This document shows, piece after piece, positions 7,861 through 58,937 of a DNA stretch of 64,000 nucleotides. The DNA is from Candidatus Falkowbacteria bacterium (lineage in GTDB: Bacteria; Patescibacteriota; Patescibacteriia; UBA11705; JABHMO01): assembly GCA_018674305.1 (NCBI GenBank), contig JABHAL010000004.1, positions 256,446 through 320,445 of the forward strand, read 5' to 3'. The translations under genes and the position numbers were made by a program. The notes beneath the pieces are model-generated. The model saw nothing but the letters and a program-made list of their open reading frames with translations, ran no database searches and had not been told where the DNA came from. Within the stretch, counting starts at the first letter, position 1; each line of letters begins with the position of its first letter.

Positions 7861-8373
7861 ATGCGTCGTGTCTCATTTTTGGTAATTGTAGTGATAGCAG
7901 TTTTGTTTAACGCTCAGGCAATGGCCTGGGAGAAGTTTGAAGATGAGCAGATCAACACTGAAGAGCAATTAATGCTCATGGTTGATTACTCCAAGCCGAT
8001 TCCTGCGCTGACCGTTCTCCAAGTCAAGGTTGAAAAACAAACCAAGACAATTAGAAAGGAGAATGGGGCAACCTGCGAGCAAGAGGTTTCTCGTAAGAAT
8101 GTGTATGGCCGTCGAGTCATGCCCGAACTTACGCCAGAAGGAGAGCAGATAGTAATTTATCTGCAGCCGATTCCTGAGTTGGACTGGATTGTAGTCAAGC
8201 CTCAGGAGCAGAAAGCAATGGCTGTAGTTTTACTACCTGGTTCTCGCACCGCCTACTATCCTTTCAAGTTAGTCAAAGAACTTAAGGATGGCAGCAAGCT
8301 TTATTCTTTGTCCATTGACACGGTTGTGCAATGCGACGCTGAAGGTAAGTGTCAAACCGAAGAAAAGAAATAG
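7861..8373 (+). CDS. Secreted hypothetical protein. Start placed at MRRVSFLV after SD ccggagg; GC-rich island
   Basis: Signal peptide VIVVIAVLFNAQAMA; the listed ORF begins earlier, but an SD plus signal peptide support the internal start. Confidence 0.5.
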   Translation: MRRVSFLVIVVIAVLFNAQAMAWEKFEDEQINTEEQLMLMVDYSKPIPALTVLQVKVEKQTKTIRKENGATCEQEVSRKNVYGRRVMPELTPEGEQIVIYLQPIPELDWIVVKPQEQKAMAVVLLPGSRTAYYPFKLVKELKDGSKLYSLSIDTVVQCDAEGKCQTEEKK

Positions 8374-10675: not shown

Positions 10676-13600
10676 ATGTCTAAAAATATTGAACCAAGAA
10701 AGTACTTTTCTGACTTTTACAAATTCGACTTACCGGATTTGATTGAAATTCAAAAAAATTCCTACGATTGGTTTATGCAACAAGGTCTACGTGAACTGTT
10801 GCATGAGCTTTCACCGATCATTGATATTTCAGATAAAGGCCTGCAATTATCATTTGATGACTATTATCTAGATGAGCCAAAGTTTGATGAAGTAACCTGC
10901 AAGGAAAAAAATGTTACTTATGAGGCACCACTTAGAGTTAAGGTTTCTTTGCATAATACAAAGACCAAGAAAAAGGATGCACAAGAAATATTTTTAGGTG
11001 ACTTCCCTCTAATGACAGATAGAGGAACTTTCATTGTAAATGGAATTGAAAGAGTGGTTGTTTCTCAGATTATCCGTTCTGCTGGTGTGTTTTTTACTTC
11101 AAATTTTGTTCGTGAGAAAAACCGAGTTTTTTATGGAGCTAAGATCATCCCAAATCGTGGAGCATGGTTGGAGTTTGAAACTGATGCTAATAATGTAGTT
11201 TGGGTAAAGATTGATCGTAAAAGAAAAGTTGCTGCCACTTCATTATTACGTGCTTTTGGTGTTGATACAGATGCTGAGATTCTTAGTTTATTCAAGGACG
11301 TAGAAACTCATCCAGATATTAAATATATTGAGGCAACTCTTGCCAAGGATGCATCAAAAACTCAGGATGAAGGTTTAATTGAAGTTTATAAAAGAATTCG
11401 TCCAGGTGATATGGCAACAGCTGAAAATGCTAAGTCACTTATTTTTGCGATGTTTTTCAATTTTGACAGATATGATTTTGCTAATGTAGGAAGATACAAA
11501 TTAAACCAAAGATTTAATACAGAATATCCTTTAACTGAAGAACACCGATTCCTTAAAATTGAGGACGTAGTAAATGTTATTAAAGAAATTGTTAGATTAA
11601 ATATTACCCAGGATCCAGCTGATGATATCGATCATTTAGGAAATAGAAGAATTCGAGCTATTGGCGAATTGATTCAGAACAAGTTTAGAGTTGGTCTTGC
11701 TCGAATGGAAAGAATTGTTAAGGATAGAATGAGTACAATGGATCCTACAACTTTGACATCTTCAAAGTTGATTAATGCTCGGCCTGTTATTGGAGTAGTT
11801 CGAGAGTTTTTTATGTCTTCTCAGTTGTCTCAGTTCATGGACCAAACTAATCCTTTGGCTGAATTGGAACATAAGCGTCGAATCTCTGCTATGGGACCAG
11901 GTGGTTTATCTCGTGAACGTGCTGGATTTGAAGTTCGTGATGTGCATACCACTCATTATGGTAGAATTTGTCCAATTGAAACGCCAGAAGGTCCAAATAT
12001 TGGGTTAGTTGGTCATTTAGCTTCACATGCCCGTGTTAATAATTATGGTTTTATTGAAACCCCATATTTAAAAGTTAAACATAAGGTAACTAAAGACTTA
12101 AAAGATCCAAAGACTGGTGATGTTTTATTCAAAAAGGGGCAGGATGTAACTGGTTTGTCTTTGGAGCAAAGTTCAATCCCAACCAATGAAATAAGAGATA
12201 ATGTTGAAACTCGATTAACTGATAAAGTTGAATATTTAAATGCATTAAAAGAAGAAAAAACAATTACTACTTCATTTACTTCTGCCGTCGATAAAAATGG
12301 TAGATTTGAGAATGAGAAACTTGACACTCGGCATTTTGGGAAGCCAACAATTGATTATACGTATAATATTGATTACATGGATGTGTCTTCTAATCAGATT
12401 GTGAGCGTAGCTACTTCTTTAATTCCCTTTTTAGAACATGATGATGCTGTACGTGCATTGATGGGATCAAACATGCAACGTCAAGCGGTTCCTTGTGTTA
12501 AACCTCAATCACCTATTGTCGGTACAGGTATGGAGAGTGTTGCTGCTCGTGATTCTGGTCATGTGGTTTTGGCCGAAGCTGATGGTGAGGTAACTGCAGT
12601 TCAGGGAGATAAGGTTGAGATGTTAACTAAGAAAGGCGAAGTAAAAGTATACAACTTGAATAAATTTGTATGTTCCAATGCCTCAACAAGTATAAATCAA
12701 CGACCGATTTGTGATGTTGGAGATAAAGTAAAAAAGGGCCAAGTTTTGGCGGATGGTCCAGCTATTCAGAATGGAGAATTAGCACTTGGGCAGAATGCAC
12801 TAGTTGCTTATATGGCATGGGGTGGCTATAACTATGAGGATGCGATCATTGTTTCAGAGAACATGGTACGTGATGATCGTTTTTCTTCAGTACATATTGA
12901 AAATTATACAATTGATGTCCGTGATACTAAACTAGGTTCAGAAATGGTCACTGCTGACATCCCAAATATTAGTGAAGAAAAATTAAAAAATCTTGACGCT
13001 GAAGGTGTTGTCCGGATTGGAGCAACTGTTAAGTCCGGTGATATTTTAGTAGGAAAAATTACACCTAAGGGAGAAACTGAACTTTCAGCAGAAGAAAAAT
13101 TATTAAAAGCTATCTTTGGTGAAAAGGCTAGAGATGTGCGTGACACTTCATTACGGTTAGAACATGGTGAACATGGTAAGGTTGTAGATATTAAAATTTT
13201 CTCTCAAGAAAATGGTGATAAATTATCACCAGGTATAATAAAGTCAATTCAGATTACAATTGCTAATTTGAGAAAGATTCAAGTAGGTGATAAATTGGCT
13301 GGTCGACATGGTAATAAAGGTGTTATATCAAAGATTGTGCCGCTTGAAGACCTACCTTTCATGGAAGATGGTACACCGGTAGATGTTATTTTGACTCCAC
13401 TTGGAATTGCGTCACGTATGAACTTGGGGCAAATTCTAGAGACACATTTAGGACTAGCTGCAGATAAACTTGGCTATAAAGCTGCTACTCCAGTTTTGAA
13501 TGGTATTCATGAAGATCAGATAAAAGAAGAATTGGTCAAAGCAGGATTTCCTGAAGATGGACAATTGACTTTATATAATGGTCAGACGGGAGAACAATTC

Positions 13601-22586: not shown

Positions 22587-23723
22587 TTATTTTTTTACAA
22601 TTTTATAAATGTTCCGAATTACCTGTTGTCCTGGTCGAGAATATTGCCATTGATTTTCAAGTACTAAGCCTTTTGGTAATATGTTTCCTAGATGTATCGG
22701 GTATTGATTTTTAAGCATTTGAAACATGGGGATGATTATAACTATTGTTCCATTTTTAACTAAAACTTTTTTTAACGAATTAAAAGTTTTTGCATATAGG
22801 TTAGTTAAATCTTCGACTATGCTTTGCATTTTTTCTGGTGATTCACCACCGCGGAGAGGTGGACCAAGATAGGGCTCAGTTACAACTGCCTGAATTGATT
22901 CAGGTTTAATTACTCTATCTAGGGTTACAACGTTTTCTTGTTTAATAGTAGCGGTGACAGTTTGTTCTATTTGATCGGCTAGCCAATCAAGATTTTCCTT
23001 GGAATCAGAAATAGCCTTTTTGCTGGCATCAGTACCCGTTACTTTCTGATAATCTGAAAGTAAAGCCTGCTGTAGAACCGTACCAGAGCCACAAAATGGG
23101 TCCAGTAAGGCTTCATCCTTGCCAATCTGGGATAGATTGATCATAATTTGCGCTAGCTTAGGAGGGATCATCCCTGATCGGTCGTCTCTTGCTGGGCGGC
23201 CATAGTCCAATTGAGAATAAAGTTCAAATGGTTGCACCGCCAGAGTTTGACCTAAATAAAAATGGTTTTTATGTTTGAGTAAAACAAGTTCAGTGCCTTG
23301 CTTGTTCAAAATATTTTTTTTCACAATGACTGAACTTAGTGGTTGTTCTTTCCCAGTTACAAAACGAACCTTATGACCGTCTTCTTTTAGTAGCCTTTTG
23401 ATTTGTATTCCAAGTTTATTTGGATCTAGGTTATTATTGTAAACGCTGATGCCAAAGTTTATTTTTTTATCATCAATTTCAATTTCCTTAACCAATGCTT
23501 GAGGGGTTGGTTGGCCGATCTGTTCGATAACTTTCCCAAGTTTAATTGTCCCACCAAGTTGATTGATAAATTCTATTCCATTTAAATCATGTTCAATTTC
23601 TAGAATCAAAAAAGTAGCTTCGCTAGCCGTTTGACTGTAGGAAATTTTTTGTTTTTCTAAAACACTTTGAATCTCAGATTTAGATAATTCTGGATGATTA
23701 CCCAGAATAAAAAAGTATTCCAT
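22587..23723 (-). CDS. THUMP-domain RNA (guanine-N2)-methyltransferase-like, SAM-dependent
   Basis: SAM-binding motif DPFCGSGT, downstream catalytic EPY/PP region and N-terminal THUMP-like region. Confidence 0.65.
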   Translation of the reverse strand: MEYFFILGNHPELSKSEIQSVLEKQKISYSQTASEATFLILEIEHDLNGIEFINQLGGTIKLGKVIEQIGQPTPQALVKEIEIDDKKINFGISVYNNNLDPNKLGIQIKRLLKEDGHKVRFVTGKEQPLSSVIVKKNILNKQGTELVLLKHKNHFYLGQTLAVQPFELYSQLDYGRPARDDRSGMIPPKLAQIMINLSQIGKDEALLDPFCGSGTVLQQALLSDYQKVTGTDASKKAISDSKENLDWLADQIEQTVTATIKQENVVTLDRVIKPESIQAVVTEPYLGPPLRGGESPEKMQSIVEDLTNLYAKTFNSLKKVLVKNGTIVIIIPMFQMLKNQYPIHLGNILPKGLVLENQWQYSRPGQQVIRNIYKIVKK

Positions 23724-27104: not shown

Positions 27105-27320
27105 TTCTCACAACTGTTCTTGACAAATAATTTTAAGATGATAAAATTGTATTACAATGTAATACACTGCCATGCGTGAAGGAATTACCAATAATCAATA
27201 ATCAAATCCTAAACAATTACCTAAATAAAAATAACCAAACTATAAATATTTTGAGAGTTGTGAATTGAATATTATAATTTGTTTATTATTTGGTGGTTGT
27301 GATTTGGTCATTATATAGTT

Positions 27321-43277: not shown

Positions 43278-45953
43278 TTAATCCAAGATAAAAGCAAACA
43301 TTTCATCAGCTCTAGATTGAGATTCAATCACAAAGCTATTTTTGTCGTTTTTTAGTTCCGGTGGGTATGTCCAGCCAGAGTTTATTGCATAAGGTAAATT
43401 GAACTTCAAGTTATAAGTTGTATTTTGTTGTCCCGCTTGTTTTTGCCAGAATAAAGAATGAAAGCCAGATTGTGATTTACTGTCAAATAAAGAAAATCGA
43501 TCTTCAGTGGTAGTTAAATTGAGCGTGATTGGGAGACGATATTTGAATATGAAAGTTTTTGTTTCTCCAGGATCGACTTGTTCCCAATTGCCAAAGACAG
43601 TTTTGTTGAATTCATTGTTTATGAAGGTTCCAGTGTTTGGATCTACCCAAACCTCACCCTGTATATTTTGTAGATGTTCATCTGTTTGCCAATGTTCTTC
43701 AGGTTCTTCAAACGCTTCAGGCGGGACTTCTTCAAAATTCTGAGCTGAAATTAGTTGACTACCAAAAGGGACATAAATTCTAACATAATTTAGATTTGAG
43801 GTTTTTCCGAAAAAATTATTTAAGTCACCGTTATGTGTGCGAGTAATTTCCAAAGTATTAATAATCTCACCATTGTTGTAAACATCAGTTGTTAAGTTCA
43901 AGGTCTGATCAATGTAAGCATCAGTTTTGCCTCCACCAATGTTGGTATTGATTACAGCCAAATAATCCTTGGAAGAATCTAATAGTTCACCGGTCCAACC
44001 ATATTCAGAAAATTTATCCTGAACTTGAGTTTCCTTGAAATAGAGTTGAATCTCTTTTTGTTCCAGATTAGTTTTGATTGTTTTTGCTAATGAAATTAAT
44101 TGTTCGCCCTGGAGGTCAAATAAGCTGTTAATAAGCTCTGGTGCCAGGTACGATAAAATCTTTTTTGGCTGATTTTCTTGAACATTGTCATAATCAATTT
44201 CAATTGCTTTTTGCAATTCTAGTACTATGTTGTCATTATTAAAAGTTTTATTATATTCAGGTAAATAAATAGGCCCTGAAACTTTCATCAGTTCAGGTAA
44301 GAATGAAACATTAATAGCAACCACGCCGTCAACTGTTGGCCCACCAGAGTGTTCATAGAACCACATAATTTTTTCAGCAGAAGTAGGAAAATCAGCAAAC
44401 CAGTTGGAGTCTTGCAGTTGCCAAAGAGGATTAACCACGTGTAATTGATAAGGTGAAATTAATTTTTTATGTAATTGACCTTGTACGTCATAGGTTCCCC
44501 CGCCAGGGATTTCAATATTGGTAATTTGACCGCGATCAACATCAACTAAAGCCATACTTCCCATGAAGCCGCCAGTTGGTCGAAGTTCATTATTGTTTTG
44601 AAAGACGAATAAGTAGCGTTTTTTGTGTTTTTGCCCGAGAATAGAATTAAGTGTGCCAGTAAAGGTGTGGAATTCTTGTATGTCACTATTCAAAAGACCT
44701 AGATATTCTTGGATGGTTCCATATATTTCTTTTTTATCATCTGGTACTGCTTCGGGTCTGATTTGTTGAAGATCATAATTTAGGCGGTCAAGTTTTGGTG
44801 AAATTGAGCTTAGTTCAGTTTGTAATGTGCTGATATGATCTGTTAAATATCCACCGGTTTGGCTTTTGAAATTAGTGAAAAGATTGGTTATTGATTGGCC
44901 CAAGCCAGAAACCTGCTCACCAGCGTCAAGTAAATGTTCTGCATCTGCTAGGTTAGGGCTGTTGATTGGAATGAGGTTAAGAATTGTCTTTAACGAGGTG
45001 CTCATGCTATTTAGTTTTTCTCCAGCTTCTACAAAGTTTTGATTTGCTGTTGAAAAACTGGTTTGTGCCATTTGCGGGTTGTCGTTAGCTAATTGAGTGC
45101 TTGCCACTTTTAAGTCTTCATAAGCTGTGGTTGCATAATTTACAATTTGCTCTTGTGATTTTCTGATTTCATTATATTGACCAAAAACTTTGATTGGTAA
45201 AATAATAATTATACATATAGCAATATAGGCGGCCAGTGGACGGTACCAAAATAAAGGTAAATTGAAATTATAGTGCCAAGGTTTTATTGTGAATTGTTTT
45301 TGCCAAGATTTTGATTTATGCTTTTTGTTTTTGTGAGAAGGTGCTGTTACTTGAATTGGGTCTTCGTGCTGAGCAATAACAACTTTTTCTTTGGATTCAA
45401 GTTTTTCTGTTATAACCACAGTTTGTTTTTTTGTTTTAGTTGTAACTTTAAGGGTTTGCGTTGGTTTTTCCCTGTGCTTCTTGGTAACGCTATGAAATCT
45501 AGATAAAACAGTACGTTTTTTTGCTTCTTTTTCTCGCTTTTTCTCTATCATTGCCGATAAGTCCAAAACAAAAGGTGAGTGTACCTGCTTGGTTGTGGTA
45601 CTATTAACTGTAATTTGAGAGGGATCTTTTTTGTTGGCTGAAATTGCTTCTTTCTCTGGTAAAAGTTTAGCTAATGCCTTGACGAGATTTTGTTCAATTG
45701 TTTTCTCAGCATTTTTTAGGTTTTGATTATCAAGAATTTCGTCAATTTCATGTTGAAGTAAACCCAAAGTCAAAGTTTCTTTTTGAGAAACTTTTTTTAC
45801 TCTCTTGGCGGAAGCTTTTTTTACAGGCTTGGCTTTTGGTTTGTTTGCTTTCGCTTTTGCTTTTTTGCGTAACGGTTTTTTGGGTTTCTTGACCGTCGAA
45901 GTTTTGGTGGAGACGGTTTTCTTTTTTTGTTTTGCAGTTGCTTTACGCGCCAT
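43278..45953 (-). CDS. Large membrane-anchored surface protein (Lys-rich N-terminus, single TM, ~650-aa extracellular region)
   Basis: 891 aa; TM PLAAYIAICIIIILPIKVF; 6-bp gap to downstream gene. Confidence 0.6.
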   Translation of the reverse strand: MARKATAKQKKKTVSTKTSTVKKPKKPLRKKAKAKANKPKAKPVKKASAKRVKKVSQKETLTLGLLQHEIDEILDNQNLKNAEKTIEQNLVKALAKLLPEKEAISANKKDPSQITVNSTTTKQVHSPFVLDLSAMIEKKREKEAKKRTVLSRFHSVTKKHREKPTQTLKVTTKTKKQTVVITEKLESKEKVVIAQHEDPIQVTAPSHKNKKHKSKSWQKQFTIKPWHYNFNLPLFWYRPLAAYIAICIIIILPIKVFGQYNEIRKSQEQIVNYATTAYEDLKVASTQLANDNPQMAQTSFSTANQNFVEAGEKLNSMSTSLKTILNLIPINSPNLADAEHLLDAGEQVSGLGQSITNLFTNFKSQTGGYLTDHISTLQTELSSISPKLDRLNYDLQQIRPEAVPDDKKEIYGTIQEYLGLLNSDIQEFHTFTGTLNSILGQKHKKRYLFVFQNNNELRPTGGFMGSMALVDVDRGQITNIEIPGGGTYDVQGQLHKKLISPYQLHVVNPLWQLQDSNWFADFPTSAEKIMWFYEHSGGPTVDGVVAINVSFLPELMKVSGPIYLPEYNKTFNNDNIVLELQKAIEIDYDNVQENQPKKILSYLAPELINSLFDLQGEQLISLAKTIKTNLEQKEIQLYFKETQVQDKFSEYGWTGELLDSSKDYLAVINTNIGGGKTDAYIDQTLNLTTDVYNNGEIINTLEITRTHNGDLNNFFGKTSNLNYVRIYVPFGSQLISAQNFEEVPPEAFEEPEEHWQTDEHLQNIQGEVWVDPNTGTFINNEFNKTVFGNWEQVDPGETKTFIFKYRLPITLNLTTTEDRFSLFDSKSQSGFHSLFWQKQAGQQNTTYNLKFNLPYAINSGWTYPPELKNDKNSFVIESQSRADEMFAFILD

Positions 45954-45963
45954 ATTATAGTAT

Positions 45964-47109
45964 TTATTTTAAATTTTTATATATTTGTAAAGTTTGTTCA
46001 GCGCATTTTCTCCAGTGAAATCTTTCAACATTATATTTTGCCTTATCAATTAATTCTTGGTTTGTTTTTTTATCAGTTAAGACCAGATTAATTTGTTTGG
46101 CCATTTCCTCAATATTTTTTGGGTCAAAGAATAGGGCAGACTCTCCAAGTGTTTCCGGCATGGATGAGGTGTTGGTTGAGACAACGGGACAGCCACAGTT
46201 TTGAGCTTCTATTCCGATTAAACCAAAGCCTTCAATAAAGGATGGAACAACAAAGGCGGAAGCTCCATTGTAAATCGCCGGTAATTCATCATCTTCAATA
46301 AAGCCTGTGGCAATAATGTCGTGCTTAAAAGGGGATCTATTAATTTCGTCCTGAACCTTTGTATAATGTAAATCCTCTCGACCACCAAGTACTAATTGGA
46401 TATCCAAATTATGCTTTTTCTTTAGTAAATTAAAAGCTTGGATTAATCCTTCAATGTTCTTGTGGGAACGCCAGACACTAACGAAAAATATATACGGTTT
46501 CGTGATACCGAATTTTTCTTTAACTGTACTAATTATACCACTATTTTCAATAATTTTAAAACGTTCGTCCACACCATGATGGATAACTTCAATTTTTTCG
46601 GAATTAATATTGAAATGTCTAACTATATCACGCTTGGTGCTATTGGAAACTGCAATAATTTTACGTGATTTGTGCATTGTTGACTTAAAGACCGTGCGAT
46701 AGGCCCACTGTCTGAATCCGGATTTTGCTTTGTGGCCAGGATAGTAAAAGGGAGTTATGTCATGAATGGTGCAAATTGATTTTTTGCGATATAAAATTGG
46801 TGAATTGAAGTGGGGGTAGTGGATTAGGTCAAATTTATGCTTCATTAATTCCAAAATGAAACTTGTTTGTTCTGTCAAAGTGTAATGTTGAACTTTGGTT
46901 AGCACTTTTGTAACCCGTTCGTTCGGTGGATTGAATCTCGAAAACTCAGGTTCACGCAAGAACAAGATATATTCATTAGTTTTATCCAACATGAAAAGTT
47001 CATCAGTTAATTTCTGAATGTAAGTTCCGATTCCACTGAATTGTGAGGCGCCATACATGCGCGCGTCGATTGCTATTATCATATTCTTAGTTATTGTTCC
47101 TGAATTCAT
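45964..47109 (-). CDS. Glycosyltransferase family 4
   Basis: GT4 signature EGFGLIGIEAQNCGCPVVSTNTSSMPE. Confidence 0.85.
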   Translation of the reverse strand: MNSGTITKNMIIAIDARMYGASQFSGIGTYIQKLTDELFMLDKTNEYILFLREPEFSRFNPPNERVTKVLTKVQHYTLTEQTSFILELMKHKFDLIHYPHFNSPILYRKKSICTIHDITPFYYPGHKAKSGFRQWAYRTVFKSTMHKSRKIIAVSNSTKRDIVRHFNINSEKIEVIHHGVDERFKIIENSGIISTVKEKFGITKPYIFFVSVWRSHKNIEGLIQAFNLLKKKHNLDIQLVLGGREDLHYTKVQDEINRSPFKHDIIATGFIEDDELPAIYNGASAFVVPSFIEGFGLIGIEAQNCGCPVVSTNTSSMPETLGESALFFDPKNIEEMAKQINLVLTDKKTNQELIDKAKYNVERFHWRKCAEQTLQIYKNLK

Positions 47110-47235
47110 TCGGGGTAGCTCCTTTGGCTATTTTCATATTTTTAGTTATTGTTCCTGAATTTATTCGGGGTAGCTCCTTTGGCGATTTTCATATCCTCAG
47201 TTATTATCCCTGAATTCATTCAGGGTACCTCCTTT
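47075..47235. repeat. Three tandem ~55-bp REP-like units, each holding a small hairpin (cctgaat-tc-attcRgg) plus the SD and first ~13 codons of the GT4 gene. The third unit supplies the C-terminus of the transposase-like ORF
   Basis: Direct alignment of units at 47075-47129, 47130-47184 and 47185-47235. Confidence 0.7.
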
Positions 47236-47769
47236 ACACAAAGTTTCAAGAAACATGTTTTCATCTTCATGTTTTTTTATTTTCAAAATAGACATTATTC
47301 TTAGTTCCAGTTCTTCTTGGTCAAATTCTTTACACAGTTCCTGAAAATTACAATATTTATATTTTTTCAATTCATTAAATGAGTGGATAATACCATGGCG
47401 GAGAGGGTTTCCTAGGATATATGCTGAAATGTTAGCATAAGCAAGTTCATCAAATATTGCCCAAGCGTAATATTTTTTCCAAAGTTGTCCTTCTCTGTTA
47501 GTTTGAATGTTAATTAATCGTGCTGATGCTCCCGCTAGATCTTTAAGGAATTTTTTACGTTGTTTTTGTTCTTCACAGTCAATAATTAAATGTAAATGGT
47601 TATTTAGTATGGCGAAATATTCAATATTAACATTATTATTTTTAGCTGCTTTATTAAATTGGTTTAAAATAATTTCTTTCAAAGGGTCGTCGAATTTTAC
47701 AATAATCTGATCAGTGAGTGAATAGGTGATGAAATATTTGCGTTCGGGGTAGAATTGGTATTTGAGCAT
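47197..47769 (-). mobile_element. HuH-Y1 (IS200/IS605-TnpA or RAYT-like) transposase, 190 aa
   Basis: HuH motif NHLHLII and catalytic Tyr region AYILGNP; flanked on both sides by REP-like hairpin repeats. Confidence 0.6.
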
Positions 47770-47774
47770 ATTAA

Positions 47775-47870
47775 TTATTTGGTAGGCCCAAATGAATTTG
47801 GGGGTAATTGTTTAGGATAATCCCAAATTGTTCTGAATTGTACATGCGACGGTCTATAGCGATTTTTACA
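47775..47870 (-). pseudogene. Decayed duplicate of the GT4 N-terminus (..VKIAIDRRMYNSEQFGII..)
   Basis: Translation of the minus strand resembles MIIAIDARMYGASQFSGIGTY of the intact GT4; preceded by two more REP-like units at 47862-47950. Confidence 0.35.
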
Positions 47871-47950
47871 TTCTTAGCAATTATACCTGAATTCATTCGG
47901 GACATTATTTTCAGTTATTATCCCTGAATTTATTCGGGGTACCTCCTTCA
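47862..47950. repeat. Two further REP-like units homologous to 47075-47235
   Basis: Sequence similarity (attttcagttattatccctgaatttattcggggtacctcc). Confidence 0.55.
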
Positions 47951-48011
47951 TACAAGGTTTCTAAAAATATCTTTAAGCATTTCCAAATTACTAATTACAG
48001 ATTACTAATTA

Positions 48012-48743
48012 CTATTCTAAATTGTTCCAAACTAAATCCCATATTGATTTCATGGTCTGAGCAATTGCTTGATCTTCAATTATAACAGCTGTATAAGGTT
48101 TTTTAAAGGATATGAGCGAAACTTTACTTTGGTAAATGTTGATTTCGGTTTCAAAGTTAATATCTTTAACTAGTTTTGTTTGGCGTAGTTGTTCTTTGTC
48201 TTTCGATTTCATTAATTTCCCCTTCGGACCATTTTTTGCAATGCAGTAAAAATGAGTATTGTTTTTTTTGCGTGCTTCAGGTCCAGCTGACCAGAGAAAA
48301 TCTGCTGGCAGGGTTTCGAACATCTTTTCATAGTCAGTAAATCCGAATATTTCACCATCTTGAACCGCGTAGTCAGCATAAGCTGTTTTAAGTCCTTCAA
48401 GTCCTTGGTGGAATTTAACTTTTGGTTTATTTGCGGGAGCATTGAAGATACTTAAGAATTCAGGAAGGTTGTTTCGTGCTTGCTCAATCCTTTTTTCAGC
48501 TTTGCTTATTACGGTTTTGGGGTTTTCTGCGACAAGGAGAAGTTTGCTACCTTTTTTTATTTCACTAACTAGTCCAAGGTTCTTCAAATCTTCAAGAAAG
48601 TTGTATATACTGGTTCTCTTCACATTGGATTCTTCAGCAAGTTCTTGAACAGTGGCTGAGCCTAGCTCAAGACAGGCAAGGTACACTTTGGCCTGCTTTT
48701 TTTGTATACCTAAACTTGTAAGAGAATCGAGTAAGTATTGCAT
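48012..48743 (-). CDS. TrmB-family HTH transcriptional regulator (paralog 3)
   Basis: QKKQAKVYLACLELGSATVQELAEESNVKRTSIY. Confidence 0.65.
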   Translation of the reverse strand: MQYLLDSLTSLGIQKKQAKVYLACLELGSATVQELAEESNVKRTSIYNFLEDLKNLGLVSEIKKGSKLLLVAENPKTVISKAEKRIEQARNNLPEFLSIFNAPANKPKVKFHQGLEGLKTAYADYAVQDGEIFGFTDYEKMFETLPADFLWSAGPEARKKNNTHFYCIAKNGPKGKLMKSKDKEQLRQTKLVKDINFETEINIYQSKVSLISFKKPYTAVIIEDQAIAQTMKSIWDLVWNNLE

Positions 48744-48921
48744 ATTTGTCTAACTTGTAGACATTGTATATAAAATAGTGAACTTTGTCAATTTTCACTA
48801 AAATTAGCCTTTGATTTAGTGCTCTTAATTTTTTATTCAAAATTCTTGTCTTAATTCTTGACGATTTCTTTTTAAACTAATATAATATATTGTTCTGTTC
48901 ATTAAAACTAGGGAGATTGTA

Positions 48922-49329
48922 ATGTGGCAATCATTTATTTTGTGTACGATTTTGGTATGTGTTTATTTTGCTTCGGCAATACATTCTTCTGTTGAATCAA
49001 ATTTTAATGAGCCAAGTTGGCTACGAACTGTTGGAAACGTTTTGGGCACTATATTTGTTCTTCTGTTAGGGGTCGTTGGTATTGCAATGATGAGCTATAT
49101 TAATCTGGAAGTCTTTAATTATCGAGAAAAAGTCATTCAATTGGTTTATGCCGGCGATTTGTTTGAATATTATATTGATAATGGGGCTCAAATTGTACGG
49201 AAATTCTCGTATAGTCCAGAGGTTCTTTGGATATGGAATTCTGGCATGTCGTTGCTTCTTATGGGTGTTATTAAGGTGATATCATTGTTGGTTAAGTTTT
49301 TTGACCCACTGCCTTTGAAGGGTTATTGA
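48922..49329 (+). CDS. Hypothetical membrane protein
   Basis: SD gggagattgtaATG; several TM segments. Confidence 0.4.
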   Translation: MWQSFILCTILVCVYFASAIHSSVESNFNEPSWLRTVGNVLGTIFVLLLGVVGIAMMSYINLEVFNYREKVIQLVYAGDLFEYYIDNGAQIVRKFSYSPEVLWIWNSGMSLLLMGVIKVISLLVKFFDPLPLKGY

Positions 49330-49383
49330 TATTTAGTTTGTCGTTTTTAAGAGAAGTGGATATTCATTAACAAGGAGGAGCAA

Positions 49384-50187
49384 ATGAAAGTACTAAAAAA
49401 GGCTGAGTGGTCTTGGAATATGTCAGGTACGTGGTTGGGGTTGAAAGATGTTGGTGATTTTTGGATAAATCGAGTTGGAAGGATTTGGGAAGGATTTTTC
49501 TTCTGTGGGTTTATCTCTATTTGGGGAATAATTGCTTTTGGCGGCAGTATTGTTGGTCTCGCGAATCTTTTCCATGATGGTCACGCTGAGGTCATGTGTT
49601 CATTTTGGGAAGTTTGGGGTTACGTTTTGTTTGTGTATTTTTTTCTAATTAGTGTGGTAGTATTTTTGAAATTTATTAAAAAATATATTGTTAAAGAAGT
49701 TACTGACTCTGAGTTGCTCGGTACATTTTTTAGGAAACGATATTCAAAGTTTTTTGAAAAACATTTAGGTCAAAAGAGTCAATATTTTCAACTACTCACA
49801 AAATGCAAGGATGTTAAAAAGCAAATTGAAAAACAGTTGCGAATACTTGATGGACAACCCGATGATTCTGATCTTTTGGAAAAGGGCAGGGAGAGATTAA
49901 AAAAGTCTCTTGCTGGGTTGGATCTGGATCTACAAAAATTAAAAAAATTTCGGGAAGGCATGAAAGCGCCGTTGGATAAACTTTTGGGAATGATTGAGTC
50001 TTCTCAGTTTAAAAGCTTCCTGAAACAATTGGATGCGATAACTCATTCCAATCGTTTAGGAAATTGTGTTCAGGATGTGAGAGCTGGGTATTTGCACGAG
50101 TTGGAACTGTTTTTAGTAAAGTTTCAATCAATGGAAAAAGAAGTACGAATAATCAAATTTCCTACATTAAAAATGAAACTGAAGTAA
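49384..50187 (+). CDS. Hypothetical membrane / coiled-coil protein
   Basis: SD aaggaggagcaaATG; terminator at 50200-50238. Confidence 0.45.
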   Translation: MKVLKKAEWSWNMSGTWLGLKDVGDFWINRVGRIWEGFFFCGFISIWGIIAFGGSIVGLANLFHDGHAEVMCSFWEVWGYVLFVYFFLISVVVFLKFIKKYIVKEVTDSELLGTFFRKRYSKFFEKHLGQKSQYFQLLTKCKDVKKQIEKQLRILDGQPDDSDLLEKGRERLKKSLAGLDLDLQKLKKFREGMKAPLDKLLGMIESSQFKSFLKQLDAITHSNRLGNCVQDVRAGYLHELELFLVKFQSMEKEVRIIKFPTLKMKLK

Positions 50188-50199
50188 ACGTATGTAACA

Positions 50200-50238
50200 A
50201 AAGCCCCACTATTTGTAAATAGTGGGGTATTTTTTTAT
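50200..50238. terminator. Bidirectional terminator (ccccactatttgtaaatagtgggg)
   Basis: Perfect stem with T-run. Confidence 0.7.
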
Positions 50239-50531
50239 GCACATTGGGCACTTAAAATTTCTACTGAATGAATCACCAACGGACCGAATAATTTTTCCAA
50301 GGCAGGTAGAGTTGAGGTCTGGGTTTGCTCTAGATTATTCAAGGTTGTAGCTTCTTTCTGTTTTTCGATCAAATACCAGCCATCAATCCAAAGTTCTAGC
50401 CACTTGCCAGTTTGAACATGTTGCAAAATGTGAGGTTGTTTTTCATCTTCCATGTATTTCTCCACAGTTAAAGGTCGATATTGTAATTTAGCATGATAAT
50501 GCGAGTGTGTCAACCCTTGTGATTGGTTCAA
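50235..50531 (-). CDS. Hypothetical protein
   Basis: ORF only. Confidence 0.3.
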   Translation of the reverse strand: MNQSQGLTHSHYHAKLQYRPLTVEKYMEDEKQPHILQHVQTGKWLELWIDGWYLIEKQKEATTLNNLEQTQTSTLPALEKLFGPLVIHSVEILSAQCA

Positions 50532-50597
50532 TTGACAAAATTATACTGCTTTGCTAATATAGCTAATCAATAGTTCATTCAACCGAGGAGGTTCATT

Positions 50598-50960
50598 ATG
50601 CCGACAGGAAGAGAATTAGTTTTTGGTATGGGAATAATGTACGGTATTCCAATATTAATTCTTTTAGCCGTAATTTTTGGTGTTGGATATTGGATTGGTG
50701 GAAACTCAGGTGCTGATTCTGCTCAAGGTTCCCCGGCTGAAGTGACACTGGGGAGTCATGAGCTTGTACAAGCATTTTGTAAATATGATCAAGCTATTAT
50801 TGTAGATGAAGATGGTGAAAACAAGTTTGTCAGTTTGCCAGACGTTTGTCGGTCCAGATGTCCAGAGTCGATTGATTCAACCAAGCCGACCTTTGTAACT
50901 ATTTTTGAAAAAACTGATCAAATTGAATGTGATTGGGTCACGAAACTAAGGACAGAATAA
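50598..50960 (+). CDS. Membrane-anchored hypothetical protein
   Basis: SD ccgaggaggttcattATG; N-terminal TM; terminator 50966-50992. Confidence 0.4.
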   Translation: MPTGRELVFGMGIMYGIPILILLAVIFGVGYWIGGNSGADSAQGSPAEVTLGSHELVQAFCKYDQAIIVDEDGENKFVSLPDVCRSRCPESIDSTKPTFVTIFEKTDQIECDWVTKLRTE

Positions 50961-51050
50961 ATATCATGCTCCGCAATGCGGAGCTTTTTTATCTGACAAT
51001 TTCAGTATAATTATATATAATAAAGAGAGGTGATAACTGAGAGGTGAAAA

Positions 51051-51446
51051 ATGAACTGTCTTGAATTTCGAGCAGTAATTGGAAGAATTGAAGAAATAGC
51101 TCCACGGGGTAAAGATTTCCTTCAATTGCAATTACATGTAAATGGTGAGACTGTGTGTGTTGTTTGCCGACAATTTGCTTTGGCCAGTTTATACCGATTG
51201 AAAGAAGAGGTTGGAGAGGAGTGTCCCGCAGTTGAGCGTCTTAATTTGATCATTTACTATCCGCCGACTTTGATTGATCAATCGATTGAACAACAAAGGG
51301 CTTTTGTGGCTGACAAGTTAGGTGAATTAACACCAGAACAAAGAAGAATCGTTTACAACGAAATTTTAAAAGAAGATTTTAGAGACGGTGATGAACATTT
51401 ACCCTGGCATGACATTGTCAAACGCTTTGTAGCAAAACATACATAG
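51051..51446 (+). CDS. Hypothetical protein
   Basis: SD gagaggtgaaaaATG; followed by two hairpin terminators (51446-51476, 51489-51527). Confidence 0.4.
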   Translation: MNCLEFRAVIGRIEEIAPRGKDFLQLQLHVNGETVCVVCRQFALASLYRLKEEVGEECPAVERLNLIIYYPPTLIDQSIEQQRAFVADKLGELTPEQRRIVYNEILKEDFRDGDEHLPWHDIVKRFVAKHT

Positions 51447-51488
51447 GCTTCGGAACACTTCCGGAGCTTTTTTTGTTTAATAAAAAAT

Positions 51489-51527
51489 AAAGAGGCAATC
51501 TTATTAAGATTGCCTCTTGTGTTTTTC
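51489..51527. terminator. Bidirectional terminator (agaggcaatcttattaagattgcctct)
   Basis: Perfect 11-bp stem; T-runs on both strands. Confidence 0.7.
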
Positions 51528-51530
51528 ACT

Positions 51531-51725
51531 TTAGTTGCTCATTTCGAACAACTCTCGGTCGACCTGTTTGCGAACAGCCTGCTTGCTGTTGCGTCGCACC
51601 AGTCGCCGTGCCAATCGTTTCATGTTCCGCGGGTGACAGCCGTACGGGTTGCAACAGGTGCAACGCCAACCTCCAGGACCCGCTTGCAACTTACCCTTTC
51701 CGAAGTACTCCTTGGCCAAACTCAT
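51531..51725 (-). CDS. Small basic Cys-rich protein (CTCCNPYGCH) in a ~58% GC islet
   Basis: SD gggaagg-N5-ATG; strong compositional contrast; the opposite-strand ORF looks non-coding. Confidence 0.35.
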   Translation of the reverse strand: MSLAKEYFGKGKLQAGPGGWRCTCCNPYGCHPRNMKRLARRLVRRNSKQAVRKQVDRELFEMSN

Positions 51726-51883
51726 TTGCACCTTCCCGGTTATTAAAGCTCTTTATTGAGCTATAATGAAACCGGGGTATGTGCTTCGATGTGTTGAAGT
51801 TCATGTTATCCTCCATGAATTGAATTGAACAAAGAACATAAGATGATATCATACACATTTGGTTTTGTCAAGTATAACTGGTT

Positions 51884-51920
51884 GAATAAAAAACTGCAAC
51901 CCGGGTGGGAGTTGCAGTCT
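51884..51920 (-). terminator. Minus-strand terminator (ctgcaac-ccgggtgggag-gttgcag + T-run) for the lipoprotein gene
   Basis: Read directly. Confidence 0.6.
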
Positions 51921-51946
51921 GTTGTTCTCTAAGGGTTGAGTGCAGA

Positions 51947-52132
51947 CTATTTTTCCATTTCTTTGATTGCAGAACCTATTCCACTTCCTTCTTTTCTGTA
52001 ATCTTCGAGCGTTTTATCGCTGCCGGTTTTCGGAGGTGGCTTCTTCACAACCGGAACGCTGGACGGGTGAGTATGGCCGGTACAGCCAGCGAGAAAACAA
52101 AGGCACATTACGGTAAGTAGCAATCTCTTCAT
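51947..52132 (-). CDS. Small lipoprotein (lipobox LAGC)
   Basis: MKRLLLTVMCLCFLAGC signal/lipobox; SD taggagg; GC-rich. Confidence 0.5.
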   Translation of the reverse strand: MKRLLLTVMCLCFLAGCTGHTHPSSVPVVKKPPPKTGSDKTLEDYRKEGSGIGSAIKEMEK

Positions 52133-52271
52133 CGCAGCCTCCTAATGATCCGTTGGGGGTTAAAGAACAGCTATATATTTTGTTAATTAATTTTGAGGTT
52201 TTTGTCAATAGCTGTAATAGTGATACGGAGGAGACATGTTAAGAAAAAAGTGAAGGCATGACAGCTTTCAC

Positions 52272-52643
52272 TTATTGACTAAAGGTTTTGGAAAAGCCGA
52301 AAATTAGTAAAAGTTGATTTTGTTTAAGCATCTCATTCGGCTGAATATTCGGAGGTAGAGTTATGGAGTTCTGTTGTTTAATGTTTTGCCAGCGAACATA
52401 TTCACCTAAAAAAAGTTTTCTCGTGATTTGTTCCTCTTCAATTGAATAAAGCGTATCTCCAATTTGAGTTTCTACCAGAAAAGTAATGGCGTGAAAATAA
52501 ACTGTTCGAGTTTTGGCTTCGATTTTCCCTAATTTTTTCACTAACGGAAAATATTCAGCTGCTTGAACAGTACCTGAACAAGTAAATAGCAAAATAACAA
52601 TTATAAAGGCAAAAGCTTTAGCAAAACCTTTAAATACTTTCAT
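52272..52643 (-). CDS. Secreted hypothetical protein
   Basis: Signal peptide ...TCSGTVQA; SD gaggagggaaagATG. Confidence 0.45.
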   Translation of the reverse strand: MKVFKGFAKAFAFIIVILLFTCSGTVQAAEYFPLVKKLGKIEAKTRTVYFHAITFLVETQIGDTLYSIEEEQITRKLFLGEYVRWQNIKQQNSITLPPNIQPNEMLKQNQLLLIFGFSKTFSQ

Positions 52644-52812
52644 CTTTCCCTCCTCAATGGATTGACAAGAGTAGGTTAATTAGATGGTAGCTTGACTAAT
52701 TTGAGTTGTCAACAGGTTTGATTTGACAAAGGCTTTGGTCGTGATAAAGTAGGTGTAAGAATTTGAGCAGCTTCTGATCGATCCCATGCTTGTCGTGTGT
52801 GAAGTTCTTCGC

Positions 52813-53955
52813 TTAAGATTTAGCGGAGAACTTTTTTATTTCCTGCAAATAATCTTGAGCAGTTTGATACCAGTGAATATCCTTTGATTTTTGTAAACCT
52901 GCGGCTATATATTGTTTGGCTAGCTTTGAATTAGTCATTTGCTTCATGGCACTGTAGAGATCGTTTGTGTCAGTTGGATTAATTAAAAGGGCAGCTTGTT
53001 GGCAAATTTCTGACATGGATGAATTGTTTGAGGTAATGACGGGACAGCCACAGGCCATTGCTTCAATTGGGGGAAATCCAAACCCCTCATAAAATGAAGG
53101 ATACACAAACATAGAAGCTAAATTGTAAAAATATCGTTTCTCAGAATCTTTGATGTATTTAGTGAAGATAATATTTTTTGACTGTTGTTTGATGATTTTT
53201 TTATAATGCCAACCTGGTTTACCGGCGATTACTAAACTATATTCAGGATGTTCCTGATGAAATAAGTTAAAAGCCTTAATTAGTGAAGTGAGGTTTTTTC
53301 TTGGCTCAATCGTGCCGAGAAACAAAATGAATTTCTCTGGTAGTTTGTATTTATTTTTTATTTTTTTAAATTTAGGATCTTTCGGATTTAAAATTCTATA
53401 ATTCTGAGAAATGCCGGAGTATATAGTTTGAATTTTCTTTGGAGCAATTTTGTAAATGTCGATTAAATCTTGCTTGGTGTTTTTTGAAACAGAAATAACT
53501 TGATCTGCTTGCTGAAAAAGTTTATTAGGATTTACAAACCAATGCCATAGTTTACGTTTGAAAGATAGAAATTCAGGAAAAATTTCAAAACTGAGATCAT
53601 GAGCGGTGATAATGTAGGGACAGTTTGTTTTGAAAAATGAAATATTAGGAAATAAGAATAAATCGATTTTCGAAGATTTGTATTTGTGAATAATTATTTG
53701 ATCAAGTTTTGGGTGAGAAAATATCTTTAACGTTAAGTTGAGTACCTTGTTGGACATTTTGAACTCACAATAATGTACATTGTCTTTGGGAAACTTAGGA
53801 ATATATTTGTTAACCTTTTGTCTGGAATTATAAAAAAGATAGTACTGGTTGGTACTATCTACTTCAAATAAATGTTTTAGGAGATAAAAAGTGTATTCGC
53901 CAACGCCAGTCAGTTCGCGTTCCATTAAGCAACGGATGTCGATACCTATATTCAT
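52813..53955 (-). CDS. Glycosyltransferase family 4
   Basis: EGFGFPPIEAMACGCPVITSNNSSMSE. Confidence 0.85.
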   Translation of the reverse strand: MNIGIDIRCLMERELTGVGEYTFYLLKHLFEVDSTNQYYLFYNSRQKVNKYIPKFPKDNVHYCEFKMSNKVLNLTLKIFSHPKLDQIIIHKYKSSKIDLFLFPNISFFKTNCPYIITAHDLSFEIFPEFLSFKRKLWHWFVNPNKLFQQADQVISVSKNTKQDLIDIYKIAPKKIQTIYSGISQNYRILNPKDPKFKKIKNKYKLPEKFILFLGTIEPRKNLTSLIKAFNLFHQEHPEYSLVIAGKPGWHYKKIIKQQSKNIIFTKYIKDSEKRYFYNLASMFVYPSFYEGFGFPPIEAMACGCPVITSNNSSMSEICQQAALLINPTDTNDLYSAMKQMTNSKLAKQYIAAGLQKSKDIHWYQTAQDYLQEIKKFSAKS

Positions 53956-54074
53956 AAACTCTAAATTCTAATAAATAAACTCTAAACAATTTTTCAAATA
54001 CAAATTTATAAATATCAAAACGTTAATTTGGGTTTTAAATTTTTAATAATTATAATTTGTTCAGGATTTAGAAA

Positions 54075-58413: not shown

Positions 58414-58446
58414 AAAAAGTCCGATCAGAGATCGGACTTTTTTTAA
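58414..58446. terminator. Terminator (aagtccgatc-agag-atcggactt + T-run)
   Basis: Perfect stem. Confidence 0.7.
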
Positions 58447-58937
58447 TTATTCCGGTCATGATGCCAACGTTCAGGATTTGTTCGGATATACCAACGGGAA
58501 TGGTCTAATTCGGATTGATTACGCAAAACGCGGTCGTAATATGATTTTTGCCAACGGAATTCCGATAAACCATTTTGATGAATAAATTTTGATGATGTGG
58601 TTTTGAATGCGCCGATGATTCCGGGGATGGGTTTTGTTTTTCGTGGTAGGGACCGGTCGCGACCGGTCCCTACATCATCGACGATACGAATAATCACATG
58701 AACGTGATTCGGCATAATAATCCATTCATCCAAATTTACATGTTCGTATTGTTTTGTTAACCAAAATAATTGTTGACGTGTAATTACCCCCGATTCATTC
58801 AACACCATTTTATCATTTACGACATTCCCAAACCATTCAATCCGATTATTTGTGCAAATTGTTAAATAATAAAAACCCGCCAATGAATAGTCAATGAATT
58901 TTGCCCGGTTTAATTTTCGATCTGGTCCTGTATACAT
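58443..58937 (-). mobile_element. Second HuH-Y1 (IS200/RAYT-like) transposase, 164 aa, with a perfect 28-bp GC-rich palindrome (58646-58673) embedded in-frame
   Basis: HuH NHVHVII and Tyr motif WYIRTNP; the palindrome gtagggaccggtcgcgaccggtccctac encodes ..VGTGRDRSLP.. Confidence 0.6.

Follow-up and report, generated by a model that had tools for sequence, protein, structure and literature searches.

A probable REPtron with short, TTAC-footed hairpins upstream of a glycosyltransferase gene in Candidatus Falkowbacteria

In the 64,000 nucleotides of Candidatus Falkowbacteria DNA analysed here (assembly GCA_018674305.1, contig JABHAL010000004.1, positions 256,446 to 320,445; hereafter the window), a gene for a 190-aa Y1 HUH protein (47197-47769, minus strand) lies among hairpin repeats, with a TrmB-family regulator gene on one side and, on the other, a gene pair encoding a family 4 glycosyltransferase (GT4) and a DUF4012 protein. 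We believe that this locus is quite probably a REPtron, that is, a single-copy, domesticated Y1 HUH gene with a Y---NP motif together with its own cognate repetitive extragenic palindromic (REP) hairpins. Judged by its sequence, it appears to represent a small TnpAREP-like subfamily that is restricted to the candidate phyla radiation (CPR) and uses atypical, short hairpins with a TTAC foot; the known concept of the REPtron is unchanged by it. We favour a REPtron over an insertion sequence (IS) because seven homologous loci all carry hairpins of their own, because tandem arrays are found among them and because two of these relatives have dispersed copies.

The 190-aa open reading frame (ORF) encodes a Y1 HUH enzyme. 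The first-pass annotation had proposed this from the HuH motif NHLHLII and the tyrosine motif AYILGNP, and both are present, with the catalytic set made up of NHLH (H58, H60), W97 and YILGNP (Y117). With 41.4 bits (E 1.9e-10), the ORF clears the cut-off of 23 for Pfam Y1_Tnp (PF01797), and a profile built from six homologues matches ISDra2, E. coli TnpAREP and IS608 among the PDB sequences. An AlphaFold2 model made with 20 homologues (pLDDT 88.3, pTM 0.83) agrees with these profile searches in returning the Y1 fold: its best structural match in the PDB is the TnpAREP-REP hairpin complex 4er8 (E 2.5e-8, 152 aligned columns), IS200/IS605-type transposases follow, and all of the top 30 matches are Y1 transposases. 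H58, H60, W97, Y117, N121 and P122 are invariant across the 20 homologues.

Within the Y1 enzymes, the protein sides with TnpAREP. Y---NP marks class 2, that of TnpAREP, and Y---Q marks IS200 (Quentin et al., 2018, PMC6006769); YILGNP fits the former signature and not the latter. By far the top-scoring NCBIfam model is REP_Tyr_transpos (NF047646), with 73.0 bits. The subfamily carries a conserved, helical C-terminal extension of ~65 residues and is small, with 11 clusters below 1e-30 and 166 below 1e-10 in a library of 1.84 billion representatives. The window holds one copy of it, the other REP-associated tyrosine transposase (RAYT) gene being only 29% identical, and its ORF list shows no tnpB-like ORF adjoining the Y1 gene.

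Read along the minus strand, the locus consists of the TrmB gene, a 61-nt A+T-rich spacer, repeat units E and D, a decayed fragment of the GT4 gene (psiGT4), unit F, the Y1 gene, units C, B and A, the GT4 gene, the DUF4012 gene and a gene for a 653-aa protein. Tandem Repeats Finder reports 47072-47235 as 3.0 copies of a 55-nt period (88% matches, score 258), and a repeat search places units from 47082, 47137, 47192 and 47906 and also at 47841-47901, along with copies within 47862-47950; the stretch 47787-47819 takes part in two inverted-repeat pairs. The 17-nt hairpin core CCTGAATTCATTCGGGG, allowing up to three mismatches, matches seven times in the 64 kb, against 0.09 matches expected from shuffles, and six of the seven lie within the Y1 locus; the seventh, at 22889 inside an unrelated coding gene, was set aside as chance.

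Five units are direct and lie on the plus strand. Unit A (47082-47136; hairpin 47099-47114) reads on the minus strand as AAAGGAG, 9 nt and an ATG (47109) that opens into the GT4 reading frame. Unit B (47137-47191; hairpin 47154-47169), in which the ATG of the hairpin is changed to ATA, is 94.5% identical to A, and since the two differ at only 3 of 55 positions the last duplication would be recent, A and B probably being the youngest duplicate pair. Unit C (47192-47246) has the only perfect palindrome, CCCTGAAT-tc-ATTCAGGG at 47208-47225, with the foot TTAT on the plus strand; it takes in the last 12 codons of the Y1 ORF and its stop codon, together with the Shine-Dalgarno (SD)-like AAAGGAGG and a copy of ATGAAAATCGCC. 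Unit D (47870-47905; hairpin 47886-47901) is cut off at its junction with E, so that the spacing from E to D is 37 nt and not 55. Unit E (hairpin 47922-47939) forms, with adjoining homology to the Y1 3' end, a segment at 47906-47974 that is 84% identical to 47192-47260 over 69 nt: its 5' neighbour on the minus strand, ~25-45 nt that include 47951-47974, resembles the 3' end of the Y1 ORF. Unit F (47787-47809, minus strand) is inverted relative to A-E, reads AATTAC-CCCCAAAT-TC-ATTTGGG on the Y1 sense strand and ends 17 nt ahead of the Y1 ATG, a position equivalent to that of the upstream hairpin in the homologous locus L005. The foot of the hairpin is TTAC in F and TTAT or TTGT in A-E, and GTAG stands 3' of the hairpin only in A and B. 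A stem-loop is predicted for every unit, with a stem of 6-7 bp. The five copies of ~45-55 bp that had been described from the sequence are therefore to be seen, as is the supply of the last 12 transposase codons by a repeat; the sixth, inverted copy F had been missed. As a side observation, a 16-nt exact match, ATCCTAAACAATTACC, to the stretch just 5' of F lies at 27206-27221, in an intergenic position beside a promoter-like TTGACA; no hairpin follows, and the match may be a remnant or a coincidence.

Our interpretation turned on the homologous loci: hairpins adjoin the Y1 gene in seven of seven (L005, L009, L016, L017, L018, L020/L021 and L022). The Y1 homologues of L005 and of L009, a Candidatus Kuenenbacteria locus, are 50% and 55% identical to that of the window and occupy the same site upstream of orthologous GT4-DUF4012 genes. 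The window's own repeat sequence is found in neither, and both have hairpins of their own. In L005, TTACCCCCCACTTCAGTGGGGG occurs twice upstream of the Y1 gene, an inverted copy downstream overlaps the stop codon, and a 12-nt half-site unit is repeated six times up to the GT4 ATG. In L009, four hairpins make up a 115-nt block with ATTACCCC...GGGGTAAT at its ends, and seven copies of a 13/14-nt unit follow; the block is intact, and a second copy of it lies 5 kb away (1029-1147) at the 3' end of another gene. L016 has at least four copies of a ~68-nt unit with an assembly gap within them, L017 has three hairpins ahead of the gene and a fourth over its stop codon, L018 has hairpins of several kinds beside the Y1 gene, L020 has 2.7 copies of a 43-nt unit up to the start of the next gene, and L022 has a single hairpin on each side, the two being inverted. 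Tandem arrays of units are thus present in most homologous loci. The array of L016 (4600-4965) alternates the hairpins CCCTCCCTTTAGGGAGG and CCCCCACATAAATGTGTGG and contains a run of N, so it is longer than assembled; several homologues' contigs (P0012, P0007) stop within 500 bp of the gene, which suggests that the repeats break assemblies.

The hairpins of these loci also share a design. In the window, L005, L020/L021 and L022, the upstream TTAC foot is on the sense strand and the downstream feet are on the antisense strand, giving TTAC(hairpin)...gene...(hairpin)GTAA, and this inverted bracketing corresponds to the layout published for tnpAREP genes in REPtrons (PMC3333891; PMC6006769; PMC8266576). 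The stems are lineage-specific but compensatory, and a 5'-TTAC/TTAY-CCC foot occurs in five loci, the TTAC form being that of F in the window, L005, L009, L017 and L020. When 14 hairpins from four loci were aligned, 96.9% of stem cells were paired, compensatory changes were found in four of seven pairs, none of 500 shuffles equalled this, and the TT of the foot and the CC/GG pairs were invariant; the hairpins for this count were chosen by eye, a first point that tells against our reading. In L018, units from beside the Y1 gene turn up again at 8020-8140, 13296 and 14514. The first of these sites holds four copies of a 30-nt hairpin unit, CCCGCTTCGACTCGCGTCGAGCGAGGCGAG, in frame within polA (DNA polymerase I); further copies of this unit stand next to the Y1 gene, at a distance of 2 kb, and at 13296. 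With dispersed copies in L009 and L018, all within 10 kb, the repeats of the relatives behave like REPs.

These comparisons bear on the suggestion that the repeats have nothing to do with the Y1 gene, having arisen from the GT4 leader by slippage duplication or serving TrmB as operator palindromes, with the Y1 gene as a bystander. TrmB-type regulators do bind palindromes, a TrmB regulator gene is the conserved neighbour here, the units are confined to this locus within the 64 kb, and the hairpins are weak, all of which would fit. Against this, the arrays persist beside Y1 homologues at loci that have no TrmB gene, next to groEL, polA, HAD (haloacid dehalogenase) hydrolase or radical SAM genes; a common foot and compensatory stems recur; the same hairpins are met kilobases away in L009 and L018; and TrmB-GT4 relatives without a Y1 gene have no such palindromes, on which ground we rejected the TrmB-operator version. 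Overall, we hold a bystander Y1 gene to be highly improbable.

Several further findings weigh against a REPtron. The 73.0 bits of the Y1 protein do not reach the curated cut-off of 80 for NF047646, and the canonical 5' GT[AG]G foot is not present in the units. Folding predictions, which the first-pass annotation had put forward as a check on its hairpins, return one in every unit, but with weak DNA folding energies (-2.5 to -7.7 kcal/mol) that clearly exceed shuffles only in unit C (z -3.6, compared with z of about -2 for A, D and E and -0.7 for B), and four of the five direct units are fully paired only through G-T wobbles, on the plus strand. The flanking hairpins of L017 are direct rather than inverted. 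Elsewhere in the 64-kb window there is no copy of the units and no other hairpin with a TTAC foot. Finally, the Y1 enzyme is at most putatively active, and its orthologue in L009 (6001-6560) is a pseudogene, in which the start codon reads ATA and the codon of the catalytic Tyr has become TAA.

How long the gene has been at this site can be judged from its neighbours. The closest GT4 relatives, L023 (73% identical), L025 and L026, have TrmB-GT4-DUF4012, or small ORFs and then GT4, and in these three both the Y1 gene and the hairpins are absent; a neighbour-joining tree of GT4 proteins intermingles loci that have Y1 with loci that lack it. The three Y1 genes found at the GT4 site form one clade, separate from Y1 genes at other sites. 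Across their three lineages they are 50-60% identical, and the adjoining GT4 proteins are 61-66% identical; since Y1 divergence is about that of GT4, and since there is one clade, residence at the site would be old. The simplest reading of these sequences is that the gene arrived once, long ago, and was then lost repeatedly, though the same spacer may have been targeted more than once.

This history matters for the other half of the original proposal, which had left the choice between a RAYT/REP system and an IS200/IS605-type insertion. Under the latter, the gene would be an autonomous, tnpA-only IS200/IS605 element, with F and C as its subterminal hairpins, that has recently landed at the GT4 gene. 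Hairpins bound the gene as they do in IS200/IS605, the fold also matches TnpA of IS608 and ISDra2, close GT4 relatives show empty sites, and more distant Y1 homologues sit in unrelated contexts. However, the motif is Y---NP instead of Y---Q, the NCBIfam model transpos_IS200, whose cut-off is 55 bits, gives no more than 29.8, no tnpB lies beside the gene, the 64 kb contain a single copy, whose neighbours do not change among the contigs read, the old residence just described does not suit a new arrival, and the flanking hairpins are inverted, not direct, in the window, L005, L020/L021 and L022. An insertion of this kind seems to us very unlikely, and a recent one was rejected on motif, copy number and phylogeny; fold, Y---NP motif and flanking hairpins speak instead for the RAYT/REP side of the original alternative.

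The repeats have left their mark on the GT4 gene. The conserved start of this gene, MIIAIDARMYG, gives a 372-aa protein (45964-47082, minus strand), the length in the NCBI annotation, and orthologous GT4 proteins begin with MKIAIDARMYG, corresponding to the ATG at 47082. The longest ORF reaches 47109 through unit A and gives 381 aa, and other gene callers choose this start, nine codons earlier. The extra nine codons, MNSGTITKN, equal the REP hairpin and its 3' flank, and since the orthologues begin at MKIAIDARMYG these codons are REP-derived. Units B and C hold ATGAAAATHGCC, which is the first four GT4 codons, and then the SD-like AAAGGAG again, so that the 55-bp duplication would have spanned from the upstream side of the hairpin into codon 4. 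The REP thereby supplies a canonical SD (AAAGGAG, 9 nt spacing) together with an ATG that is in frame with the conserved GT4 start and precedes it by 27 nt. No SD precedes the GT4 start in the relatives (L005, L009 and the empty-site relatives). These two points are what bears on the first-pass suggestion that expression of the gene was potentially rewired. The GT4 protein may, speculatively and from the sequence, be made with a nine-residue, REP-encoded extension or with changed efficiency. A comparable case is seen in L020 (3097-3125), where the caller's start is an ATG inside the last hairpin (MRGKKS-MIKAIVSD), six codons before the apparent start of a HAD hydrolase; start prediction seems to be repeatedly misled by REP arrays that abut start codons. 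Gene-start annotation is affected directly, two annotation sources being nine codons apart at the GT4 gene, and expression of the surface-polysaccharide operon could also be affected.

A further fragment of the GT4 gene, psiGT4, lies upstream of the Y1 gene (47815-47869, minus strand; ~55 nt) and is a decayed copy of the first ~18 GT4 codons, reading GTA AAA ATC GCT ATA GAC CGT CGC ATG TAC.... Unit D with psiGT4 is 74% identical (63/85) to unit A with the GT4 5' end. We take E-D-psiGT4 to be, most plausibly, a diverged duplicate of the stretch that runs from the Y1 3' end through C and A to the GT4 5' end. Duplication of the GT4 start had been proposed from the sequence alone, and it needs some redrawing. 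Each repeat had been said to reproduce the first 13 codons of the gene: four of these are true GT4 codons (ATGAAAATHGCC), the other nine are REP-derived, and B and C are mostly REP. The decayed copy had been placed at 47775-47870, downstream of the transposase: the fragment is real over ~47815-47869 and belongs to the segmental duplicate, but it is upstream of the transposase, and part of the longer span is REP F.

Based on these observations, we propose the following course of events. As E. coli TnpAREP cleaves and rejoins DNA near the folded single-stranded REP hairpin in vitro (PMC3479197, PMC8266576), the Y1 enzyme would, by analogy, bind the folded single-stranded hairpin together with its 5' foot, nick it and rejoin it. 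The local array could have arisen by such strand transfer between neighbouring units or by replication slippage. First, a 55-bp unit comprising the SD-like sequence, the hairpin and the first four GT4 codons would have been tandemly duplicated, giving C and A. Next, the segment from the Y1 3' end through C and A to ~55 nt of the GT4 5' end would have been duplicated upstream of the Y1 gene, where it decayed to E-D-psiGT4. Finally, A would have been duplicated again to give B. As a side effect, the last REP unit would have placed an SD and an in-frame ATG 27 nt before an ancestral GT4 start that lacked an SD. By the usual rule, the strand with positive GC skew is the lagging-strand template, where such enzymes meet single-stranded DNA; skew is positive on the plus strand across the window, so the plus strand may, tentatively, be that template.

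Whether the system still works today is a separate matter. It could be a decaying relic, a once-active REP/RAYT pair whose enzyme and repeats are now inert and have no effect on GT4. Stems that have drifted towards A+T and contain wobbles, a foot that has decayed from TTAC to TTAT/TTGT in A-E, the lack of dispersed copies in 64 kb, the pseudogene in L009, the loss of the Y1 gene in three related lineages and the lack of copy-number variation would all be expected of a relic. On the last point, four independent assemblies are identical across 1200 bp around the locus, so that phase variation through unit copy number, which we considered, finds no support. Yet the Y1 ORF is intact and has all catalytic residues, A and B differ at 3/55 positions, pointing to a recent duplication, and the exact protein is widespread: it is encoded by Candidatus Falkowbacteria GCA_018703365.1 and many metagenome contigs, occurs in 71 blocks of an assembly index, and has like neighbours in 23 of 23 contigs read. 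We regard inertness as a real possibility, though not the likelier state; it is compatible with the identification as a REPtron and differs from it only on present activity. At the other end of the range, gain and loss of units driven by the enzyme might form a built-in module that supplies or removes an SD, an alternative in-frame start and an mRNA hairpin (as the window, L005 and L020 would suggest), thereby tuning or switching an envelope glycosyltransferase operon, with the TTAC-tagged REPs and their own RAYT subclass constituting a third tag family. We think this unlikely; if true, it would add a third REP tag family beside the GTAG and CGTC repeats.

Abundance throughout the genome is what defines REPs; for the source genome, our view of it is that of the 64-kb window, in which no unit is seen outside the locus. 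Exact-pattern scans of collections that do not include the source genome, with ATTRTNCCTGAATTYATTCRGGG in metagenome contigs and TNCCTGAATTYATTCRGGGTA in genome contigs, returned three chance matches each, which fell in coding sequence of unrelated organisms. The second RAYT-like gene of the window (58443-58937, minus strand) encodes 164 aa with PNHVHVII, WQ and YIRTNP. The first-pass annotation had asked whether the same 55-bp units flank it; they do not, and only terminators or terminator-like hairpins are found there. It has its own perfect palindrome, GTAGGGACCGGTCGCGACCGGTCCCTAC, in frame at 58645-58672 between the HuH and Tyr motifs, an in-gene "double-foot" REP such as characterises subclass 2.4 (Quentin et al., 2018, PMC6006769), with no further copy in the window.

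The wider setting is a cell-envelope glycan cluster (43278-54000) with a Bac_transf priming transferase, the present GT4 and two more, the DUF4012 protein (891 aa), the 653-aa protein, which has a faint CLIPPER match, and three TrmB-family regulator genes, one upstream and two convergent downstream. The upstream one (48012-48743, minus strand) is the conserved neighbour of the locus, and the sole strong promoter-like site (48791-48763) lies upstream of it; inside the locus a promoter and terminator scan gave nothing above chance, no terminator-like site was found on the minus strand between that promoter-like site and GT4, and no Rfam family matched 46500-48500 at E up to 1. The TrmB stop codon is immediately followed by a 7-nt tandem repeat, AATTACT, in four copies (47986-48014). 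Similar AATTACGAATCTA-type repeats are present in the TrmB-GT4 spacer of the empty-site locus L023 (4845-4925), so the A+T-rich repeat would be older than the Y1/REP element and have no connection with it. Perhaps it belongs to a promoter or an operator.

Patescibacteria (CPR) genomes are ~1 Mb and usually repeat-poor, and REP/RAYT systems have been characterised almost wholly in Proteobacteria and Cyanobacteria. The nearest model is the E. coli REPtron, in which tnpAREP (yafM/RAYT) is flanked by REPs and bacterial interspersed mosaic elements (BIMEs) (PMC3333891; PMC3479197, PDB 4er8; PMC8266576). Like it, our locus has a single-copy Y1 HUH gene between its own hairpins, which are inverted on the two sides, arrayed REPs, a Y---NP motif and 4er8 as its best structural match. 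Unlike it, the foot is TTAC/TTAY and not GT[AG]G, the stems are short (6-8 bp, with loops of 2-4 nt) and free of bulges, the enzyme has an extra helical C-terminal extension of ~65 aa, hundreds of dispersed copies are not seen within 64 kb, and the host is a CPR bacterium. Among described groups, and compared by description, the enzyme resembles TnpAY1 subclass 2.6 (Bertels group 5) and class 3 in its NH[LIV]H HuH motif and length of ~180 aa, whereas it has W[KNDE] for WQ and YILGNP for YIH[QN]NP; subclass 2.6 was described from Bacteroidetes, and class 3 from Planctomycetes, Acidobacteria and Proteobacteria (PMC6006769).

Other relatives are more distant. IS200, IS608 and ISDra2 share the catalytic fold, hairpins beside the coding sequence and a tetranucleotide signal, which is TTAC in IS608. 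There, the TTAC lies 19 nt from the hairpin and not at its foot. The hairpins of IS200/IS605 elements are recognised as single-stranded DNA, and by analogy the units of the window may be too, but those elements are multi-copy and mobile, have Y---Q and often tnpB, and carry their hairpins on the same strand at both ends. The inverted doublet D/F, with arms at 47870-47901 and 47787-47818 that are 51 nt apart, and the 115-nt composite ATTACCCC...GGGGTAAT that L009 has twice, recall REPINs (PMC3116915); in contrast to REPINs, the feet of D and F face inward, a GT4 fragment is enclosed, and there is no copy population in the window. In marine picocyanobacteria, too, a TnpAREP gene lies at a conserved distance from one host gene, procA, with an intergenic hairpin that is likewise conserved, and remodelling of the host gene sequence was proposed, the authors later calling causality unsupported (bioRxiv 10.1101/2020.03.09.984088). 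Those genes belong to subclass 2.1, are convergent with procA and have many copies per genome, whereas here the gene is co-directional and single-copy, and remodelling is seen only in the first codons. In that respect the locus is a clean example of an array remodelling the 5' end of its neighbour, with four codons captured, an SD and an ATG donated, and a fragment of the gene start duplicated. Together with its relatives, it would show that the RAYT-REP partnership also exists in CPR bacteria, where it differs from the classical form in its TTAC foot, its very short stems, its strong tendency to form tandem arrays and, in at least one case, an array in frame inside polA.

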